This document shows positions 19,731-44,314 of a stretch of 64,000 nucleotides of DNA, piece after piece. The position numbers were made by a program, and so were the translations under genes. The stretch lies in NCBI RefSeq assembly GCF_044324875.1, contig NZ_CP172185.1; one strand, 5' to 3'. The first letter of the stretch is position 1, and every line of letters starts with the position of its first letter. The DNA is from Escherichia coli (GTDB lineage Bacteria; Pseudomonadota; Gammaproteobacteria; Enterobacterales; Enterobacteriaceae). A model generated the notes under the pieces. The model had not been told where the DNA came from, did no database searches, and was given only the letters and a program-made list of their open reading frames with translations.

Positions 19731-22013
19731 ATGTCCGAGCTTAATGAAAAGTTAGCCACAGCCTGGGAAGGTTTTACCAAAGGTGACTGGCAGAATGAAG
19801 TAAACGTCCGTGACTTCATTCAGAAAAACTACACTCCGTACGAGGGTGACGAGTCCTTCCTGGCTGGCGCTACTGAAGCGACCACCACCCTGTGGGACAA
19901 AGTAATGGAAGGCGTTAAACTGGAAAACCGCACTCACGCGCCAGTTGACTTTGACACCGCTGTTGCTTCCACCATCACCTCTCACGACGCTGGCTACATC
20001 AACAAAGCGTTGGAAAAAGTTGTTGGTCTGCAGACTGAAGCTCCGCTGAAACGTGCTCTTATCCCGTTCGGTGGTATCAAAATGATCGAAGGTTCCTGCA
20101 AAGCGTACAACCGCGAACTGGACCCGATGATCAAAAAAATCTTCACTGAATACCGTAAAACTCACAACCAGGGCGTGTTCGACGTTTACACTCCGGACAT
20201 CCTGCGTTGCCGTAAATCCGGTGTTCTGACCGGTCTGCCAGATGCTTATGGCCGTGGTCGTATCATCGGTGACTACCGTCGCGTTGCGCTGTACGGTATC
20301 GACTACCTGATGAAAGACAAACTTGCACAGTTCACCTCTCTGCAGGCTGATCTGGAAAACGGCGTAAACCTGGAACAGACTATCCGTCTGCGCGAAGAAA
20401 TCGCTGAACAGCACCGCGCTCTGGGTCAGATGAAAGAAATGGCTGCGAAATACGGCTACGACATCTCTGGTCCGGCTACCAACGCTCAGGAAGCTATCCA
20501 GTGGACTTACTTTGGCTACCTGGCTGCTGTTAAGTCTCAGAACGGTGCTGCAATGTCCTTCGGTCGTACCTCCACCTTCCTGGATGTGTACATCGAACGT
20601 GACCTGAAAGCTGGCAAGATCACCGAACAAGAAGCGCAGGAAATGGTTGACCACCTGGTCATGAAACTGCGTATGGTTCGCTTCCTGCGTACTCCGGAAT
20701 ACGATGAACTGTTCTCTGGCGACCCGATCTGGGCAACCGAATCTATCGGTGGTATGGGCCTCGACGGTCGTACCCTGGTTACCAAAAACAGCTTCCGTTT
20801 CCTGAACACCCTGTACACCATGGGTCCGTCTCCGGAACCGAACATGACCATTCTGTGGTCTGAAAAACTGCCGCTGAACTTCAAGAAATTCGCCGCTAAA
20901 GTGTCCATCGACACCTCTTCTCTGCAGTATGAGAACGATGACCTGATGCGTCCGGACTTCAACAACGATGACTACGCTATCGCTTGCTGCGTAAGCCCGA
21001 TGATCGTTGGTAAACAAATGCAGTTCTTCGGTGCGCGTGCAAACCTGGCGAAAACCATGCTGTACGCAATCAACGGTGGCGTTGACGAAAAACTGAAAAT
21101 GCAGGTTGGTCCGAAGTCTGAGCCGATCAAAGGCGATCTCCTGAACTACGATGAAGTGATGGAGCGCATGGATCACTTCATGGACTGGCTGGCTAAACAG
21201 TACATCACTGCACTGAACATCATCCACTACATGCACGACAAGTACAGCTACGAAGCCTCTCTGATGGCGCTGCACGACCGTGACGTTATCCGCACCATGG
21301 CGTGTGGTATCGCTGGTCTGTCCGTTGCTGCTGACTCCCTGTCTGCAATCAAATATGCGAAAGTTAAACCGATTCGTGACGAAGACGGTCTGGCTATCGA
21401 CTTCGAAATCGAAGGCGAATACCCGCAGTTTGGTAACAACGATCCGCGTGTAGATGACCTGGCTGTTGACCTGGTAGAACGTTTCATGAAGAAAATTCAG
21501 AAACTGCACACCTACCGTGACGCTATCCCGACTCAGTCTGTTCTGACCATCACTTCTAACGTTGTGTATGGTAAGAAAACGGGTAACACCCCAGACGGTC
21601 GTCGTGCTGGCGCGCCGTTCGGACCGGGTGCTAACCCGATGCACGGTCGTGACCAGAAAGGTGCAGTAGCCTCTCTGACTTCCGTTGCTAAACTGCCGTT
21701 TGCTTACGCTAAAGATGGTATCTCCTACACCTTCTCTATCGTTCCGAACGCACTGGGTAAAGACGACGAAGTTCGTAAGACCAACCTGGCTGGTCTGATG
21801 GATGGTTACTTCCACCACGAAGCGTCCATCGAAGGTGGTCAGCACCTGAACGTTAACGTGATGAACCGTGAAATGCTGCTCGACGCGATGGAAAACCCGG
21901 AAAAATATCCGCAGCTGACCATCCGTGTATCTGGCTACGCAGTACGTTTCAACTCGCTGACTAAAGAACAGCAGCAGGACGTTATTACTCGTACCTTCAC
22001 TCAATCTATGTAA
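19731..22013 (+). CDS. pflB: Pyruvate formate-lyase (glycyl radical enzyme)
   Basis: 760-aa ORF with glycyl-radical motif RVSGY near C-terminus. Confidence 0.98.
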
Positions 22014-30857: not shown

Positions 30858-31027
30858 AATGGCTCACTCAAGCTTGCTCACGATTGATTCCAGTAACAAA
30901 CCGTATTGTGTAATTATTTCTATAGCAGTTCGCTATATAGGCTTGTATACATCGAATAATTTGAAAATCAAAGAGATAGGTAGATTTTCACTCGAAAGTA
31001 GTATTACGTGTAAGTGAGGAGTAATTA

Positions 31028-31041
31028 TTGTTCGGTATCAA
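31028..31041 (-). promoter_or_regulatory. FNR binding site of dmsA promoter
   Basis: Minus strand reads TTGATACCGAACAA (TTGAT-N4-AACAA) about 170 nt upstream of dmsA ATG. Confidence 0.7.
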
Positions 31042-31153
31042 AGGGAGACAAAAAAAGCGCCCGCAGGAGATTTAACGGTACTTACTCCTCTTGCTGATTT
31101 CCTTATTTTTCAATAAGTAAACAAAAACAAGGGGAGCAAATTATCACAAATAA

Positions 31154-32158
31154 TTACTGGTCGATGGACAGTTTATGGACACTTTCAGCCAGCGGATTAA
31201 AGCTGATCGCATCCTGTAAAAAGTCCGGTGAAAAATGCGCATACGTCATCGTTTGCTGAATCGTGGCGTGACCCAGGATCCTCTGCAACGTGACGATGTT
31301 CCCGCCGTTCATCATGAAATGCGTGGCGAACGTGTGCCGCATGACATGCGTGGCCTGCCCTTTGGGTAAGTCGGGCTTCACCTCCTGAAGGATCTCCCTG
31401 AAACTGAGATAATCAACCTGATATAACAGGCCGGTCCGGCGGGTTTTAATTAACGGCACAACGGAATCAGCTACAGGAACCGAGCGCGATTTCCCGTTCT
31501 TTGTGTTAAAGAACGTCACCCTGTTACCCACGATGTGTTCCCCGCGAAGCGTTGACGCCTCTTTCCATCTGGCCCCGGTCGAAAGGCACAGAATGGCAAT
31601 GCGTCGTGCATCACCCTCAAGCCGTTTCAGAAGGCGATCAATCTCGTCATCTGAAAGAAAGGCCATTTCTGTATTCTGAACCTTGAGTTTACGTATTCCG
31701 CGCACAGGGTTTTCGTTATGATAAACCTCCGCGTCAATTAACAACGAAAACATCGCAGATAAGGCGCACAGGTCGCGATTGATACTGGACGGCATCAGTC
31801 CCGCCTGCAACTTATCCGAGCGATACTCAATCACGAATTTTCGTGTCATCTGGCTGGCGCGCGGGTCCCCCATTTCACGTATCACCTTCTCCAGTCTGGT
31901 TCTGTAGGTATCACCATATGCCTGATTACGACCATCAAGCATCCACCACACCTCAATCAGTTCTGATAACCGCCGTTGATCGGCGGGCCTTGCCTGCCAC
32001 GGGTTATTGTGGAAATTCTGAAGAACGTATCTTTCGAATTCCTGCGCCTTTGATTTCAGGGTGAAAATCTTACGAATCCGCCTTCCTCCCGCCCCCTGAG
32101 GCCTTACATCAACCTGATAACGTCCGTCTTTGAGTTGCTTAATCGACATGATCAGCAC
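31154..32158 (-). CDS. int: Phage tyrosine integrase (P2 Int-like)
   Basis: 334 aa; conserved ILCLSTGARW...ATHVMRHTFATHFMMNGG...LQRILGH...YAHF (R, H-x-x-R, Y catalytic residues). Confidence 0.93.
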   Translation of the reverse strand: MLIMSIKQLKDGRYQVDVRPQGAGGRRIRKIFTLKSKAQEFERYVLQNFHNNPWQARPADQRRLSELIEVWWMLDGRNQAYGDTYRTRLEKVIREMGDPRASQMTRKFVIEYRSDKLQAGLMPSSINRDLCALSAMFSLLIDAEVYHNENPVRGIRKLKVQNTEMAFLSDDEIDRLLKRLEGDARRIAILCLSTGARWKEASTLRGEHIVGNRVTFFNTKNGKSRSVPVADSVVPLIKTRRTGLLYQVDYLSFREILQEVKPDLPKGQATHVMRHTFATHFMMNGGNIVTLQRILGHATIQQTMTYAHFSPDFLQDAISFNPLAESVHKLSIDQ

Positions 32159-36508: not shown

Positions 36509-36606
36509 GTAACCACTATGCACACACAAAAAAACCGCTTGCCATGCCGCAATCAGTCAGGTTACATTTCCGCTGCACCTCATAAAACGGGTGCCGGGAT
36601 TGCAAC

Positions 36607-36648
36607 CCCCGCTGACAACTACAGCGCACAACCGCGCCAGCGGTTTTT
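36607..36648 (+). terminator. Candidate rho-independent terminator
   Basis: CCGCTG...CAGCGG hairpin followed by T7. Confidence 0.45.
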
Positions 36649-36828
36649 TTGTGCGTACCGTATCGCCACGTCTTTTTCGCGCCAGAATTATGGCGGGGCG
36701 TATGGGGCCGACTTCGGTCGGGCCGGTTTCTGTAGTTGCCGGTGGTTGCAACCCTGTACGTCTCGCCACCCAGAATTGCAACCTCTGGATGGTGAGTTTT
36801 CAAAACTTGCAACTACAGAGGCCACACC

Positions 36829-37540: not shown

Positions 37541-40051
37541 ATGAGCCATCACCACACGCACCTGGCGTACCCGTGGAACGCCCCGCTGCCGGTTATTGAT
37601 CCTGAGACATTCGGCAGAGCATTACCGCAGAAGCCAACCGCATTACAACGGGCAATCCGTGACTACCTCACCGAAGACATTCGCACTGAGGCCCGGCTGG
37701 ATGAAGAAACCGTGGCCTTCCTGACAACCACGGACAAAGGTAAGCAAATTAATTCACACCTTCACCGGGACGAAGAGCGGCAGATAAGGCTGGATAAGCT
37801 GGCACGACACAGACGCGAAAATCCGCCAACGGCGGTATCGGAGGCGATAGCCGAACTTCGCACCCTGCCCTCGTTTCTTGCCAGTGTGTTGATCCGTGAT
37901 CTGGCACGACTGAACCGGAAACAGCAAAGTGCCCGCAGTGAAGGTGTAAAAAACAACAGCGCATACGTGGCCGATAATTTCGTTCGCCGTGGACTGCGTG
38001 CGCGCCTGAAACGTATTGAAAGGGTTAACGACCGCTTTGCAACGCCGGCATTCAAAACCACCGTCGTGCGCCATCGCCTTGAAGAACTGCTCACACTGCC
38101 GCAACTCACCCGTGACGAAATCCAGCGCATCGCCACACTGACAGCCCAGGCATTCGCCGCAGAATTTGAACGCATATGTGATGAAGTTCTTGAACGGACA
38201 GGCAAGGATAATGACAGCCCGGTTATCTGGCTGCTGGCCTACCAGAAGGTGGCACGCACAGCCTTAATTCTGGGCATGGTCCCGCCATACTGGCCGGAAC
38301 TCGAAATCAGGCACAACCGACGCACACCGCCGGACCCTGAACGGGTTCCGGGTGCGGTACTGCGCATCACCTGCGCGACCTGGTGGAACAACCAGTTACG
38401 CCACGTCGCCGATCTCTGGCGGGAGGAGTTACTGCGCGCCGCCGGCAGAGTGTCACGTAAACAATCCCCCTATATCAGCCATGAGTCACTACTGGAGTTC
38501 CGCGAGAAGCGCCAGCGCACCTGTGACTTTCTCAAAAGCTGGGATATTGAAAACGAAGACGGCGAGCGCCTGAGTCTGGAGGACGTGTACTGGGCTGGCC
38601 TGGGTAATCCACGCAACCGCCGCAATGAAATGATGGTCTGCGTCAGAGGGATGGAGATGGTGGCCGAATTACGGGCTGACGTCGCATTCTTCATCACAGT
38701 AACCACCCCTTCCCGCTTTCACAGCGTGAACGAGAACGGCAGCCTGAACCCGAAATACAACGGTGCCACAGTACGAGATGCCAGTGATTATCTGGTTTAC
38801 GACTTCTTCGCAGCCGTAAGAAAAAAAATAAAAAAAGAGGGGCTGGGCTGGTACGGCGTGCGAACCGCTGAGCCACACCATGACGGCACGCCACACTGGC
38901 ATATGCTGGTATTCACTTCCCCGGAGAACGCAGAGCGCATCATCGAAATTATGCGCGAAGCAGCAATTAAATCAGATCGCCACGAACTGGGGGACGATAT
39001 TTCACCGCGCTTTAAATGCGAGAAGATAGACCCGGAAAAAGGCACACCGGCAAGCTATATCGCAACCTATATCGGTAAGAACCTGGACGCCAGCGCTTTC
39101 CACAACAATGATCCGAAAACCGGAAAACCTTACGTTGATGAGGAATCCGGGAAAACCATGGCGGAAACCGTGGAGAACGCCATTGCCTGGGCAAGCCTTC
39201 ACCGCATCCGTCAGTTCCAGTTTTTCGGCATTCCGCCCCGCCAGGTATGGCGTGAACTCCGCCGCCTTGCAAGCCAGATGGAGCGCAACCCGGCATCACC
39301 GAAGCACCTCGATCATGACGATATTGACGCCATTATGGCTGCCGCAGATGTGGGATGTTTTGCCACCTACATCATGAAACAGGGTGGTGTGCTCATTCCG
39401 CGCAACCAGTATCTGGTCCGCACCGCATACGAAACCGCAGACGAAGCCAACGACTACGGTGAATTCCCTCAACGTATCTACGGAATCTGCGCCCCGTCGC
39501 TCGGAGAGCGGTACACCATATGCACCCATCCGGACGAGTGGAAACTGGTTAAAAAAGAAACAATACCAGACAACCGCACGGGCGAGGGTTTTGACCTTCA
39601 GGGCGACCCCGTCGCCCCTTGGACTCGTGGCAATAACTGTCCCCGGGATGAAAAAACAGACAATCACGGACCAGAAAACAGGCAGGACCCCGGACGACTG
39701 ACGCTTCCCGAAGAGAACCTGGAAAGCTGGCTGAATACGTTAAGCAGGGGCGATCGGAGAAAACTGCGTAATCAGATTAAAAATCAGCCGTCGGGCGCAA
39801 AAACCGGACAAAACGACACCACACCGGCATCTGACACCCCTGTAAGGGTGGGGATTGTCGTGCCTGCGGATACCGCGACGGACACGCAAATCGCCCGCGA
39901 ACTTGATGCGCTGGGTGTGCAGTTGCCTGACGCGGCCATCATCTCCGTGCGTAACGGTGCCCGTGTGCGTCTGGATAACGGGGGAACAGCGTACTGGGAT
40001 GAGTCAGCCCGTCACATCATCACAGAGCAGCCAGTGGAGGCGGGAGCATGA
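37541..40051 (+). CDS. Phage replication initiation endonuclease (P2 gpA-like, rolling-circle HUH)
   Basis: 836 aa; HUH-type motif GTPHWHMLVF and tyrosine motif YIATYIGKNLD. Confidence 0.88.
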   Translation: MSHHHTHLAYPWNAPLPVIDPETFGRALPQKPTALQRAIRDYLTEDIRTEARLDEETVAFLTTTDKGKQINSHLHRDEERQIRLDKLARHRRENPPTAVSEAIAELRTLPSFLASVLIRDLARLNRKQQSARSEGVKNNSAYVADNFVRRGLRARLKRIERVNDRFATPAFKTTVVRHRLEELLTLPQLTRDEIQRIATLTAQAFAAEFERICDEVLERTGKDNDSPVIWLLAYQKVARTALILGMVPPYWPELEIRHNRRTPPDPERVPGAVLRITCATWWNNQLRHVADLWREELLRAAGRVSRKQSPYISHESLLEFREKRQRTCDFLKSWDIENEDGERLSLEDVYWAGLGNPRNRRNEMMVCVRGMEMVAELRADVAFFITVTTPSRFHSVNENGSLNPKYNGATVRDASDYLVYDFFAAVRKKIKKEGLGWYGVRTAEPHHDGTPHWHMLVFTSPENAERIIEIMREAAIKSDRHELGDDISPRFKCEKIDPEKGTPASYIATYIGKNLDASAFHNNDPKTGKPYVDEESGKTMAETVENAIAWASLHRIRQFQFFGIPPRQVWRELRRLASQMERNPASPKHLDHDDIDAIMAAADVGCFATYIMKQGGVLIPRNQYLVRTAYETADEANDYGEFPQRIYGICAPSLGERYTICTHPDEWKLVKKETIPDNRTGEGFDLQGDPVAPWTRGNNCPRDEKTDNHGPENRQDPGRLTLPEENLESWLNTLSRGDRRKLRNQIKNQPSGAKTGQNDTTPASDTPVRVGIVVPADTATDTQIARELDALGVQLPDAAIISVRNGARVRLDNGGTAYWDESARHIITEQPVEAGA

Positions 40052-40479
40052 CGCGATTTTGCTGCACCATGCAGCGCCCACAGTTTGAGGCCATCATGCG
40101 CCAGCGTATGCCGGTGCTGACACTGTTCAGGCCTGCCACAAGGCCACAACCGGGCGACGAGCTGGAAATCACGATAGTCAGCCCCGATCGCACCACGGAG
40201 ACCACCATCGCCGACATACTCAACAGGCGGCCGGGCAGCGAGAGCCATAGCTGGACTGTCGTCATTCGTCCGCGCCGTTCGCCGGAGGAACCGGAGCCGT
40301 GCACGCCTGCCGGGAAAATCATGCAGAGATATCACGAAGAGCGGACACGCAGGCACAACGGCGGACTGGCCAGAACACTGAACACAGTCAATCACAAGGC
40401 CGCGCTGGCGCGAATGGTCTTTTCACCACAACGCAATTCATTCGCCAGACCAGCACAGAACGGGAGGAAACAACAGTGA
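40048..40479 (+). CDS. Hypothetical phage protein (143 aa)
   Basis: ATGA overlap with gene A stop; GGAGG SD. Confidence 0.5.
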   Translation: MTRFCCTMQRPQFEAIMRQRMPVLTLFRPATRPQPGDELEITIVSPDRTTETTIADILNRRPGSESHSWTVVIRPRRSPEEPEPCTPAGKIMQRYHEERTRRHNGGLARTLNTVNHKAALARMVFSPQRNSFARPAQNGRKQQ

Positions 40480-40670
40480 GCAGAATATTACTTTTTCTGC
40501 TGTTTTTCGCGCCATTCGCACAATCAGCCACGCCGAACTGCGTAGCGAAAAAGAGCAACACCGTTGTCATTGTCCAGTGTGATGACGGCACGGTAACAAT
40601 CACCGACTCGAGCAAAGGAAGCGTCATTGTCTGCCGTAAAGAGAAACCCTGTCAGCGAACCGAACTTTGA
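40476..40670 (+). CDS. Small putative secreted Cys-containing protein (64 aa, GTG start)
   Basis: N-terminal signal-peptide-like SRILLFLLFFAPFAQSA; overlaps previous stop. Confidence 0.4.
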   Translation: MSRILLFLLFFAPFAQSATPNCVAKKSNTVVIVQCDDGTVTITDSSKGSVIVCRKEKPCQRTEL

Positions 40671-40681
40671 AGGAAAAATAT

Positions 40682-40761
40682 ATGAACAGGAAACAGAAGC
40701 AGGAACTGAAAGGCTTCTTACGTAAAGAAATTGCCAGGCTGGAAGATGTGGAATCTCAGTC
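40682..40761 (+). pseudogene. 5' fragment of small phage gene interrupted by IS21-family element
   Basis: MNRKQKQELKGFLRKEIARLEDVESQS... continues in frame at 43407 once the IS and one copy of the target duplication are removed. Confidence 0.8.
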
Positions 40762-40860
40762 TGCGTATTCCGCTCTATTCGATCACGGATTGGCATCGAA
40801 GTCCGATCAGCGATTCGCATCCATTCGATCAACCGGGAACTTAACTTTTTCTACCGCTTT

Positions 40861-41616
40861 TTAACGCGTTTTTTCGCTGCTTTCCACTACCGGGGGATTT
40901 TTCCTCAGTGACTCTCCCTGAAGGACCACTCGGTGTGAGTTATGTACCAGTCTGTCCAGGATGGCATCTGCTGTTGTTGGGTTCTCCATCAGACCATGCC
41001 ATTTATCTACCGGGAACTGGCTTACCACTATCGTGCTGCTTTGTCCGTAACGATCCTCTATGAGCTCCAGAAGGTCATTACACTGGGCGTTACTTAACTG
41101 TTCCAGCCCCAGATCGTCCAGGATTAGAACCTGTATTTTTTGCAACTGTTTCAGATATTTCAGCCAGCTGCCATCAACACGTCCCTGAGCCAGTTGTTCC
41201 AGTAATCGCCCGGTTCTACAGTACCGGACGCTGTGTTTCTGTCGACATGCCTGTTCGCCCAGCGCATTGGCTATCCAGCTCTTGCCACATCCTGTCGGAC
41301 CGGTTATCAGCAGGTTTTTCCTGTGGGTTATGTAGTGGCCGTTCAGCAGTTCTCTCATCTGTTCAGCCCGCAGACCTCTTGAGGCCGGATAGCGCAGCCC
41401 TTCCGGTGTTGCCTGGTATTTCAGGCCGGCATTTTTTCTCAACCGTGCCACACGGCTGTTTTCCCTGCTCAGAAGCTCGTCATCAACCAGCAGCGTCAGC
41501 CTTTCCTCGAACGACAGTTCGTCGTAGGTCTGAGGCGTTTCCCGCTGCCGTATCAGGCTCCCGGCCATCGCCGGGAGTTTCAGTTGGGTCAGTTTGTTTA
41601 ACAGGTTATCACTCAT
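40861..41616 (-). CDS. istB: IS21-family helper ATPase IstB
   Basis: Start MSDNLLNKL; Walker A GPTGCGKS; 251 aa. Confidence 0.93.
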   Translation of the reverse strand: MSDNLLNKLTQLKLPAMAGSLIRQRETPQTYDELSFEERLTLLVDDELLSRENSRVARLRKNAGLKYQATPEGLRYPASRGLRAEQMRELLNGHYITHRKNLLITGPTGCGKSWIANALGEQACRQKHSVRYCRTGRLLEQLAQGRVDGSWLKYLKQLQKIQVLILDDLGLEQLSNAQCNDLLELIEDRYGQSSTIVVSQFPVDKWHGLMENPTTADAILDRLVHNSHRVVLQGESLRKNPPVVESSEKTR

Positions 41617-41632
41617 ACTGTTGTTCCTTCTG

Positions 41633-43168
41633 TCAGTGGTAGTAGCCCGGACCACGCAGGTTTTCATGCTCTGAAGCATATGCCGGATGTTGTTCGCCCT
41701 GGCGGGATAATGGAAGCTCCAGGTTCTCCCGATGGTGACGCAGCAGATTGTCGATAAAGCGTCTGTCAGGGGCGTTATAGTGCAGGGCAACGTAACAGGC
41801 CTTTTCCAGCCGTTCCGGGCCGTATTTTTTCTGAAGTGCCAGCAGCCCCAGAACTGCACGATAAGCCAGTTCCGGATGGGGTTTTGCCTTCAGCATGGAT
41901 TCAACCACCCGGCCTGTGGACGGGCCCGTACGTTTTCCCTGCTCGATCAGGCGTTCCGGTGTCCATGTCCCGTGCTGCCGGTGGCGCTCTGGCATGTGAA
42001 GCGGATTGGTTGTGTGTTTATATTCATGTGTGCTGCGCGGATGTTGCGCCACACACTGCCCCTTGTGCCAGAGCTGTACCACCGACTGCCCCGCCTTCAG
42101 TGACAGACGCTGACCGACCAGTTCGTGTGGAACGGAGTACCAGTGACGGGCATATTCAACGTGGTAGTCAGGGCCAACCTTCACAGCTTTGTATTCCGTG
42201 TATTCATAAGGTGCCAGAGGCAGCGGAGAGAGTGCTGGCGCATCCAGTATGCGGAAGCGTTCTGCACGGGTTTGATTGCCGTACCCCTTCATTGGCCGGT
42301 TATTCATGTCTGTCAGTAACTCCCTAAGGCGCGCATTCAGCGCCCTGAGCGTGTGGAAGGTTTCATTACGGATGCGGGCAAGAAGCCATCGTTCAACGAT
42401 GAGGACGCCGTTTTCTGCTTTTGGTTTATCTTTAGGTTTGCGTGGTCGGGCCGGGATGATAACCGTGCCATAGTGCTCAGCCAGTGCCTGATAACTGTCG
42501 TTGATGACAGGCTCATATCGATCGGCCTTTTTCACTGCGCTTCTGAGGTTATCGGGGATGAGCAGCTTCGGTACGCCGCCCAGGAAGGTCAGGCAACGGC
42601 TGTGGGCATTTAACCATGACATCATGTCCTGACCTTCGCACGCTTCAACGTAGGTATAGTTGGACGCCCCCATTACGGCCACGAAGATTGCCACGCGGCG
42701 TATCTCACCGGTGTCCGGATTAATAACAGGAACCGTAGGACCACAGAAGTCGATAAAAAGCTTTTCGCCGGCACGATGCTCCTGGCGCATGGAGAGACGT
42801 CGCGTTTTTTTCCACTCCCGGTAGCAACGGCAGAAGTGCGAGTATCCCATCGCTTTGTTACCCGCCTGTGCCTTGTATTCCATCCACAACAGTTGCCGCG
42901 TCACACCTGGTTTTCTCATTTCCGTATCGAAGTACAACATGTCAGGCATTACAAGCTCTGATGCAAAGGTGTCTTTGGGCGGAAAAATGAGTTTCTCCAG
43001 CGTGTCATGGGATATATCAGCAGGTAATGGCCATGACAGAGAAGAGGCTTTGAAGCGGGCAAGAACCTCAAAAACGGTTGAGGCGCTGATGTGTAACGTC
43101 AGTCCGATACAACGGTTAGTCAGCTTCTTGTCGAACTTGAGCTGAAGGATCTTAAAACAGGTTTCCAT
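41633..43168 (-). CDS. istA: IS21-family transposase IstA
   Basis: Start METCFKILQ with AGGAG SD; DDE integrase core region; 511 aa. Confidence 0.92.
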   Translation of the reverse strand: METCFKILQLKFDKKLTNRCIGLTLHISASTVFEVLARFKASSLSWPLPADISHDTLEKLIFPPKDTFASELVMPDMLYFDTEMRKPGVTRQLLWMEYKAQAGNKAMGYSHFCRCYREWKKTRRLSMRQEHRAGEKLFIDFCGPTVPVINPDTGEIRRVAIFVAVMGASNYTYVEACEGQDMMSWLNAHSRCLTFLGGVPKLLIPDNLRSAVKKADRYEPVINDSYQALAEHYGTVIIPARPRKPKDKPKAENGVLIVERWLLARIRNETFHTLRALNARLRELLTDMNNRPMKGYGNQTRAERFRILDAPALSPLPLAPYEYTEYKAVKVGPDYHVEYARHWYSVPHELVGQRLSLKAGQSVVQLWHKGQCVAQHPRSTHEYKHTTNPLHMPERHRQHGTWTPERLIEQGKRTGPSTGRVVESMLKAKPHPELAYRAVLGLLALQKKYGPERLEKACYVALHYNAPDRRFIDNLLRHHRENLELPLSRQGEQHPAYASEHENLRGPGYYH

Positions 43169-43406
43169 AGTGCTCCTGGATTTTCTCTTTCTGGACATTG
43201 ACGTCTCCACTGGTTTAAACACGGCAATGGAGACTGTGGTGAAAAGAGTTAATTCCCGGAGTGACTGGCAGGATGCCAATCAATGATCGGAAGCATGCCA
43301 AATCGTGATCGATTGTGATGCCAAACTGTGATCGGAGATGGATGCCAAATCATGATCGATTCGAATGCCAAACTGCGATCGATTCAGATGCCATTTTGCA
43401 TCAGTC

Positions 43407-43641
43407 ATCAGATATTCCATTCGGAATGGATATCAACGACGCCTGTATGCTCCAGGTATACCGCATAGCTCAGGCTGCACTACAGGCAAAACCGTCAGAT
43501 GGACTGGTTAGAGCAGTACGTTTCTATGAACTGGTAAAGCGTGAGAATCCGCCAGTCGAAACCGGAGCATGGCAAGACGCTGTTGACTGGGTGCTCAAAG
43601 AGGCTTGTCAGGTTGTAAACACTGGCATCAAAGGAGACTGA
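43407..43641 (+). pseudogene. 3' fragment of the IS-interrupted phage gene
   Basis: In-frame continuation SDIPFGMDINDACMLQVYRIAQ...; reconstructed intact ORF about 104 aa. Confidence 0.8.
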
Positions 43642-43642
43642 T

Positions 43643-43852
43643 ATGGCTATTGCCGCAAGTTACACCATGCATCTCTATTGTGATTGTCGCCAGTGTACAA
43701 ATGGTAAATATCAAACGCCAGACTTCGGTGAATATATCGGTACGTCATGGACTGGCTGTGCAAAAGAGGCGCGTAAGGATGGCTGGCGAATAAGCAAAGA
43801 CAAAACTCGTGCTTTTGCGCCCGGGCATAAAGTTTTGAGGATTAACAAATGA
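43643..43852 (+). CDS. Small Cys-rich (zinc-ribbon-like) protein, 69 aa
   Basis: AAGGAG SD; CxC-x2-C plus distal Cys. Confidence 0.5.
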   Translation: MAIAASYTMHLYCDCRQCTNGKYQTPDFGEYIGTSWTGCAKEARKDGWRISKDKTRAFAPGHKVLRINK

Positions 43853-44250
43853 CCACTATAACCAAAGAGCGACTACTGACAATCAGGCAGTGGCGCGAAA
43901 CATACGGACCTGGTAGCAACGTTGTACTGCCAGCCGAAGAAGCGGAAAAACTGGCACGGATTGCTTTGGCATCGCTGGAAGCAAAACCAATAGGTGCTTT
44001 CCACATTGCAGAACAGCAGGTCGATGGCACAAGTGACTACATCAAGGATGGGGAGTACCGCTTGCTGACATCTGAAGAACAAAAGATAGCCCAACTTTTA
44101 GGCGATGCATGGAACCTGTATTTTACATTGCCAGTTGAGCATCCAATGGGTAGAGATGAATTTTGCCGGGCAATTCATCATTGCCAAAATATGGTGTTGG
44201 CACGCCCTGCCATCAGGGCGCTGGCCAGTAAGGGGCAAGGCTATAAATAG
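43849..44250 (+). CDS. Hypothetical phage cargo protein (133 aa)
   Basis: ATGA overlap with previous ORF; GAGGA SD. Confidence 0.55.
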   Translation: MTTITKERLLTIRQWRETYGPGSNVVLPAEEAEKLARIALASLEAKPIGAFHIAEQQVDGTSDYIKDGEYRLLTSEEQKIAQLLGDAWNLYFTLPVEHPMGRDEFCRAIHHCQNMVLARPAIRALASKGQGYK

Positions 44251-44287: not shown

Positions 44288-44314
44288 TGCACAATAGTGC
44301 ACAAATTTGCACAA
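44288..44314 (+). repeat. Three tandem 10-bp-phased TGCACAA repeats (candidate operator)
   Basis: TGCACAAtag TGCACAAatt TGCACAAttt at 44288, 44298, 44308. Confidence 0.6.

Follow-up and report, generated by a model that had tools for sequence, protein, structure and literature searches.

We asked what separates the two parts of a small prophage gene in a 64,000-nucleotide stretch of Escherichia coli DNA (hereafter, the window), how the intervening DNA came to be there, and what its arrival may have done to the gene and its neighbors. The gene belongs to a P2-like prophage that occupies the window from approximately position 31070 onward and carries integrase, cox, portal, terminase, capsid, and tail genes. 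The prophage lies beside dmsA, and the dmsA-adjacent flank was matched in 5,424 of 5,426 complete E. coli genomes. Among named phages, P88 (Peduoviridae, Xuanwuvirus) is the closest. Within the prophage, the split gene occupies the variable, non-structural region between the replication endonuclease gene and the portal gene. We are highly confident that the intervening DNA is an intact ISSso4 insertion sequence, which arrived by transposition and interrupts codon 27 of this 104-amino-acid gene of the P2/P88-like prophage. The relevant features are:

37541–40051: replication endonuclease, 836 aa
40682–40761, plus strand: 5′ portion of the interrupted 104-aa prophage gene (codons 1–26 and two bases of codon 27)
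40762–43400, minus strand: complete ISSso4 of the IS21 family (2,639 bp; ends TG...CA)
43407–43641, plus strand: 3′ portion of the same gene, with its TGA at 43639–43641 and the conserved C-terminal module

An earlier note on this DNA, made from the letters and their reading frames, had described the intervening DNA as an IS21-family element carrying istA and istB. Both genes scored above the cut-offs of their family models, and the description therefore holds:

43168–41633, minus strand: istA, encoding a 511-aa DDE transposase (284.7 bits to model NF033546, cut-off 160)
41616–40861, minus strand: istB, encoding a 251-aa AAA+ helper ATPase (257.8 bits to model NF038214, cut-off 200)

The two genes lie on the same strand with a 16-nt gap between the istA stop and the istB start, and the same istA coding sequence is annotated by RefSeq in identical copies of the element. 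IstA contains the Pfam domains rve (residues 131–245) and Mu-transpos_C_2 (residues 316–387), an assignment made at the level of domains. IstB contains a Walker A motif (GPTGCGKS) and a Walker B motif (LILDDLG). The istA-istB order, the IstA and IstB models, the multi-repeat TG...CA ends, and the short target duplication all agree with the IS21 family.

The element, read from 40762 to 43400, runs from TGCGTATTCC to CATTTTGCA, and is oriented such that its own left end is at 43400 and its own right end at 40762. A megablast search of 5,426 complete E. coli genomes returned 297 records from 225 genomes at a coverage of at least 80%; the best 20 of these 297 records were all 100% identical over approximately the full length and came from both chromosomes and plasmids. 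The copy on plasmid pCT is 99.7% identical over 2,639 bp (seven substitutions) and is flanked by its own target duplication, ATACTT. RefSeq labels the IstB protein (WP_001282653.1) as “IS21-like element ISSso4 family helper ATPase IstB”, and the pCT copy is called ISSso4 in one paper (PMC6361801); our use of the name is based on this annotation and on that paper’s labeling. Sequence comparison thus identified 40762–43400 as a known IS21-family element, most likely ISSso4. This copy is presumably still active, because full-length copies at numerous unrelated E. coli sites are identical to it. Many of the identical copies come from poultry isolates.

Next, we determined where the element begins and ends. 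The comparison set consisted of ten copies with flanking sequence, namely nine E. coli copies (100% identical) and the pCT copy. Each of the ten measures 2,639 bp and bears the same ends, TGCAAAATGGCA...GCGGAATACGCA, at unrelated chromosomal and plasmid sites. The earlier reading depended on the ends not lying elsewhere, and the shared termini of the ten copies place them at 40762 and 43400, with flanks that rejoin in frame (see below). Both ends also contain the multiple repeats that had been noted from the letters:

43273–43400, minus strand: left (istA-proximal) terminal inverted repeat region, with five internal copies of CGATC-N5-TTGGCAT and a terminal copy, TGCAAAATGGCATC
40762–40821, minus strand: right (istB-proximal) terminal inverted repeat region, with a terminal copy, TGCGTATTCCGCTC, and internal copies at 40780–40796 and 40804–40820

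When at most one mismatch was allowed, the motif ATGCCAA-N5-GATCG had seven matches in the 64-kb window, all of which were inside the ends of the element: five at 43273–43381, with a spacing of approximately 23 bp, and two in inverted orientation at 40780–40820. Outside the element, the window contained four matches, each with two mismatches, which is the level expected by chance. If the partial terminal copies are included, the istA-proximal end has six repeat units and the istB-proximal end has three. The two ends are not a single long perfect inverted repeat, given that an ungapped alignment produced only 10 matches in 30 positions; instead, it is the internal repeat units that line up, offset by 1 nt. 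Ends with multiple direct repeats (L1/L2 and R1/R2) that IstA must bind, and with a terminal CA, are described for the IS21 family, as is the absence of strong target specificity (PMC10122671).

We then examined the sequence immediately outside these termini, where a 6-bp duplication had been proposed:

40756–40761: target-site duplication TCAGTC, upstream copy (a single copy at the empty site, SCU-115 locus L002 9223–9228)
43401–43406: target-site duplication TCAGTC, downstream copy

A scan of duplication lengths from 3 to 11 bp and of boundary offsets up to ±6 gave a match only for a length of six at zero offset, and so alternative lengths and shifted boundaries were ruled out. The occurrence of TCAGTC by itself means little, since the hexamer is found 15 times on the plus strand and 24 times on the minus strand of the window; the weight lies in both copies abutting independently fixed termini, for which the chance is approximately 1/4096. 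Eight of the ten comparison copies have direct duplications of their own, of 4 bp (n = 1), 5 bp (n = 2), 6 bp (n = 3), or 7 bp (n = 2). The remaining two (L003 and L010) lack a duplication, which likely reflects later recombination between copies or adjacent deletions.

Removal of 40762–43406, that is, of the element and one hexamer, restores a 104-aa open reading frame of 315 nt from the ATG at 40682 to the TGA at 43639–43641, preceded by AAGGA at 40670–40674, 7 nt 5′ of the start codon. The rejoined coding sequence is identical at 315 of 315 nt to the gene annotated in SCU-115 for WP_001080487.1, a “hypothetical protein”, and the proposal that a small phage gene with its own ribosome-binding site had been split is thereby substantiated. 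The uninterrupted gene, which the earlier note had suggested looking for in related prophages, occurs in 22 complete E. coli genomes, where the same prophage occupies the same position close to dmsA. Of the complete genomes, 12 contain a rejoined 526-nt sequence without interruption at 100% identity and ten more contain it at 99.8% identity, and a rejoined 4-kb stretch is 99.6–99.8% identical in the 22 carrying genomes. In strain NZ_CP033635.1, for example, the prophage sits at this dmsA site and lacks the insertion sequence. In local BLAST alignments to SCU-115, the two flanks matched L002 2184–9228 and 9223–18526 and overlapped by exactly the 6-bp TCAGTC.

These data bear on whether the element could instead have been placed here by homologous recombination, or by an error of assembly, with a coincidental match between the hexamers. 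TCAGTC is not rare in the window, the two copies without duplications indicate that ISSso4 copies can be rearranged after insertion, and insertion sequences are classic sites of misassembly. However, recombination between two copies of the element would give non-matching flanks, whereas here both hexamers abut termini that were defined independently, the empty site in 22 genomes has one TCAGTC at exactly this position, and 6 bp falls within the 4–7 bp range of duplications made by this element. We therefore regard such an origin as extremely unlikely.

Transposition is thus by far the preferred explanation, and element identity, termini, duplication, empty site, and rarity of the junction were all computed here. 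The chemistry of the event we infer from knowledge of the IS21 family. IstA would bind the repeated sites in both terminal inverted repeats and expose the 3′-CA ends, the IstB ATPase would hold the target DNA, and IstA would then join the ends to the target at cuts staggered by 6 bp. The TCAGTC duplication would arise when the resulting gaps were repaired, and the outcome would be a null allele of the small gene. The insertion is an ordinary event, and the element was already known.

How old is the insertion? The in-frame rejoining of the gene had been taken as a sign that the event was recent. Old and young insertions alike rejoin in frame if they are clean and the duplication is intact, and the in-frame join is therefore not evidence of recency. 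The claim of a recent event nevertheless stands on other grounds: the insertion looks recent because the two gene parts and their surroundings match empty-site alleles exactly, because the element is identical to copies elsewhere, and because a 401-nt query spanning the junction between the element and its flank found no record covering at least 80% of the query among the 5,426 complete E. coli genomes searched. Conversely, the insertion might be old and fixed in a lineage, in which case the gene halves would be the fragments of a decaying pseudogene. The source genome of the window is outside the complete-genome collection, and hence a carrier lineage could be unsampled. Yet neither half shows any difference from the intact allele, the surrounding 526 nt match 12 empty sites perfectly, the element itself is unchanged relative to copies in unrelated replicons, and the junction is missing from the whole collection. 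Together, these observations make an old insertion improbable, and we favor a recent one.

Lastly, we considered the consequences for the gene and its neighbors. In the interrupted state, translation from 40682 enters the insertion sequence and stops at 40862–40864, with a predicted product of 60 aa that comprises 26 native N-terminal residues and 34 residues encoded by the element. Two small genes follow, in tight coupling with the split gene and with each other:

43643–43852, plus strand: small gene of 69 aa, with the junction TGAtATG to the split gene
43849–44250, plus strand: small gene of 133 aa, with the junction ATGA to the 69-aa gene
44297–44312: terminator-like hairpin, 3′ of the two downstream genes

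The element is antisense to the phage operon, and a long untranslated antisense RNA of an insertion sequence (2.6 kb here) classically leads to Rho-dependent polarity. We infer from this arrangement that a polar effect on the two coupled genes (43643–44250) is plausible, as the earlier note had also suggested, and its reach would be at most these two small genes because of the terminator-like hairpin at 44297–44312. We looked for a promoter-like site directed rightward out of the element toward the downstream genes, and none was found. Plus-strand terminator-like hairpins inside the element (41411–41455, 41911–41926, and 42390–42407) were considered as evidence of polarity and set aside as weak consensus matches; the scanned region has 11 terminator-like hairpins compared to an expectation of 6.0 ± 2.9.

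An open reading frame of 108 aa (43315–43641, GTG start at 43315) runs from the end of the element in frame into the C-terminal part of the gene. Might the insertion then be silent, or even adaptive, with the C-terminal module made from the GTG at 43315 and the downstream genes still expressed? The frame does read through from the element, and residues 30–104 form the conserved part. However, there is no Shine-Dalgarno-like sequence before 43315 and no rightward promoter-like site at that end of the element, the istA promoter region faces the other way, and an open reading frame of this kind is to be expected where an open frame adjoins a junction. A silent or adaptive insertion is accordingly very doubtful, and loss of the small gene, with possible polarity, is the preferred outcome. 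Equally far-fetched, in our view, is the proposal that loss of the split gene's small early-operon protein together with silencing of the two coupled genes, or else production of an N-terminally replaced protein from 43315, could alter prophage induction or lysogeny.

What the lost protein resembles is relevant to that proposal. Escherichia phage P88 gp20 (YP_009113063.1) is 93% identical to it over all 104 residues and is found at the corresponding place, in the variable region that separates the replication endonuclease and portal genes, but the neighboring genes differ, being parM and a gene for a partition protein in P88. Residues 30–104 are 57–73% identical to the C-terminal parts of proteins of lambdoid and Stx phages, some of which were labeled Ea22 or ead/Ea22-like by their depositors. 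Ea22 is reported to favor lysogeny in lambdoid phages (PMC7093339), and an NMR structure of lambda Ea22 has been published. The 104-aa protein had no match in Pfam even at E ≤ 10, no family in NCBIfam, and no match among PDB sequences at E ≤ 1, and PHROG matches in the region of the split gene were to families of unknown function only (phrog_660, 26213, 250, and 4468). With no PDB chain matching at E ≤ 1 and no Pfam family, the protein was filed as resembling the Ead/Ea22 family rather than as a member of it. The Ea22 label is therefore best treated as a lead rather than as membership: kinship with lambda Ea22 appears unsupported, because there is likeness only to depositor-labeled proteins and no PDB or Pfam match.

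The value of these findings lies mainly in annotation, and possibly in strain typing; their biological importance is small. We suggest that 40762–43400 be labeled ISSso4, and that 40682–40761 and 43407–43641 be annotated as one disrupted gene, equivalent to that for WP_001080487.1, rather than as separate hypothetical open reading frames. The junction, which none of the 5,426 complete E. coli genomes contains, could be used to mark a particular strain or lineage. The locus may also be useful for functional study, as a natural knockout of an uncharacterized accessory gene, and possibly of the two genes downstream of it, in a P88-like prophage. More broadly, judging from the identity of its copies, ISSso4 is presumably mobile in E. 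coli at present.

ISSso4 was first named in Shigella sonnei. The closest comparison for the copy described here is the pCT copy (NC_014477.1, 41986–44624): both are 2,639 bp long with the same termini, each is flanked by a 6-bp duplication, and their IstB proteins are identical (WP_001282653.1). The two differ only in the site of insertion and in a few substitutions in istA, such that IstA is WP_045147483.1 in copies identical to that in the window and WP_000447015.1 in pCT. The prototypes IS21 and IS5376 have been studied biochemically and by cryo-EM (PMC10122671). In common with ISSso4, they have an istA-istB operon, a DDE/rve core with a Mu-like beta-barrel, an AAA+ helper, a terminal CA, multi-repeat inverted repeats, a short duplication, and no strong target specificity (PMC10122671). 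By contrast, ISSso4 is larger (2.64 kb, with an IstA of 511 aa compared to approximately 400 aa for IS5376 IstA), and its left end, with five internal repeats and one terminal repeat, exceeds the L1/L2 arrangement of the prototypes. ISSso4 also generates duplications that vary from 4 to 7 bp, whereas those in IS5376 assays were uniformly 5 bp (PMC10122671).

The two ends of ISSso4, the IS21-family element (window 40762-43400, minus strand) that carries istA and istB and splits a 104-aa prophage gene, are strongly asymmetric. Six units resembling IstA sites, spaced by ~23 bp, lie in the istA-proximal end (43273-43400), against three such units in the istB-proximal end (40762-40821). The terminal repeats of prototype IS21 members are described as L1/L2 and R1/R2 (PMC10122671); the ends of ISSso4 hold more repeat units than those of the prototypes. 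The istA-proximal end also contributes the start of an open reading frame:

43315-43641, 108-aa ORF, GTG start within the ISSso4 end, continuing in frame into the split gene's 3' part

Neither a Shine-Dalgarno-like sequence nor a rightward promoter was seen for this ORF, which is probably a by-product of the ISSso4 junction.

Two of the ten ISSso4 copies compared from other sites (L003 and L010) lack a target duplication. One is on plasmid pD2-tet(X4), adjoining traG; the other is on pVTB074v-1, adjoining traC and a DUF932 gene. The missing duplications suggest IS-mediated deletion, or recombination between ISSso4 copies, on pD2-tet(X4) and pVTB074v-1.

The family phrog_660 matches residues 1-103 of the split 104-aa protein as well as the N-terminal 91 residues of a 133-aa protein encoded two genes downstream (43849-44250). 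This common match suggests that the two small proteins are modular and in part paralogous. At its C-terminus, the 133-aa protein matches phrog_13916, whose label, 'DNA ligase', is implausible here given a profile of just 67 positions. Directly upstream of the split gene is another small ORF:

40476-40670, 64-aa ORF

Its PHROG matches are solely to families of unknown function. Given the signal-peptide-like stretch at its N-terminus (MSRILLFLLFFAPFAQSA) and its four cysteines, it may encode a small secreted prophage protein.

Outside the prophage, a long open frame was considered as a gene and rejected. It lies opposite the following gene:

19731-22013, plus strand, pflB (760 aa)

The shadow frame spans 750 codons (19752-22004) in codon register with pflB. 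CTA, TCA and TTA codons become stops when read antisense; pflB contains no CTA, no TCA and a single TTA. Codon bias thus accounts for the shadow ORF, which is not a real gene.

The left junction of the P2/P88-like prophage falls within the 3' end of an sRNA gene and is followed by the integrase ORF:

30948-31082, STnc130 sRNA gene (125.8 bits)
31154-32158, minus strand, integrase ORF

E. coli genomes that lack the prophage are homologous to the window up to about 31067-31073, where the match ends. A query spanning the junction is covered to at least 80% in 344 genomes, which suggests that a related prophage occupies this site in them too.

The early region of the prophage encodes a tandem pair of Rfam sRNAs:

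36575-36650, isrK (60.1 bits)
36686-36773, C4 antisense RNA (80.1 bits)

Directly downstream of the pair is the homologue of a gene from E. coli SCU-115, a strain with the uninterrupted site, where its annotation reads 'derepression protein'. Together, these elements, located in a P2/P88-like prophage, resemble the C4 antirepressor control module of the P1/P7 type.
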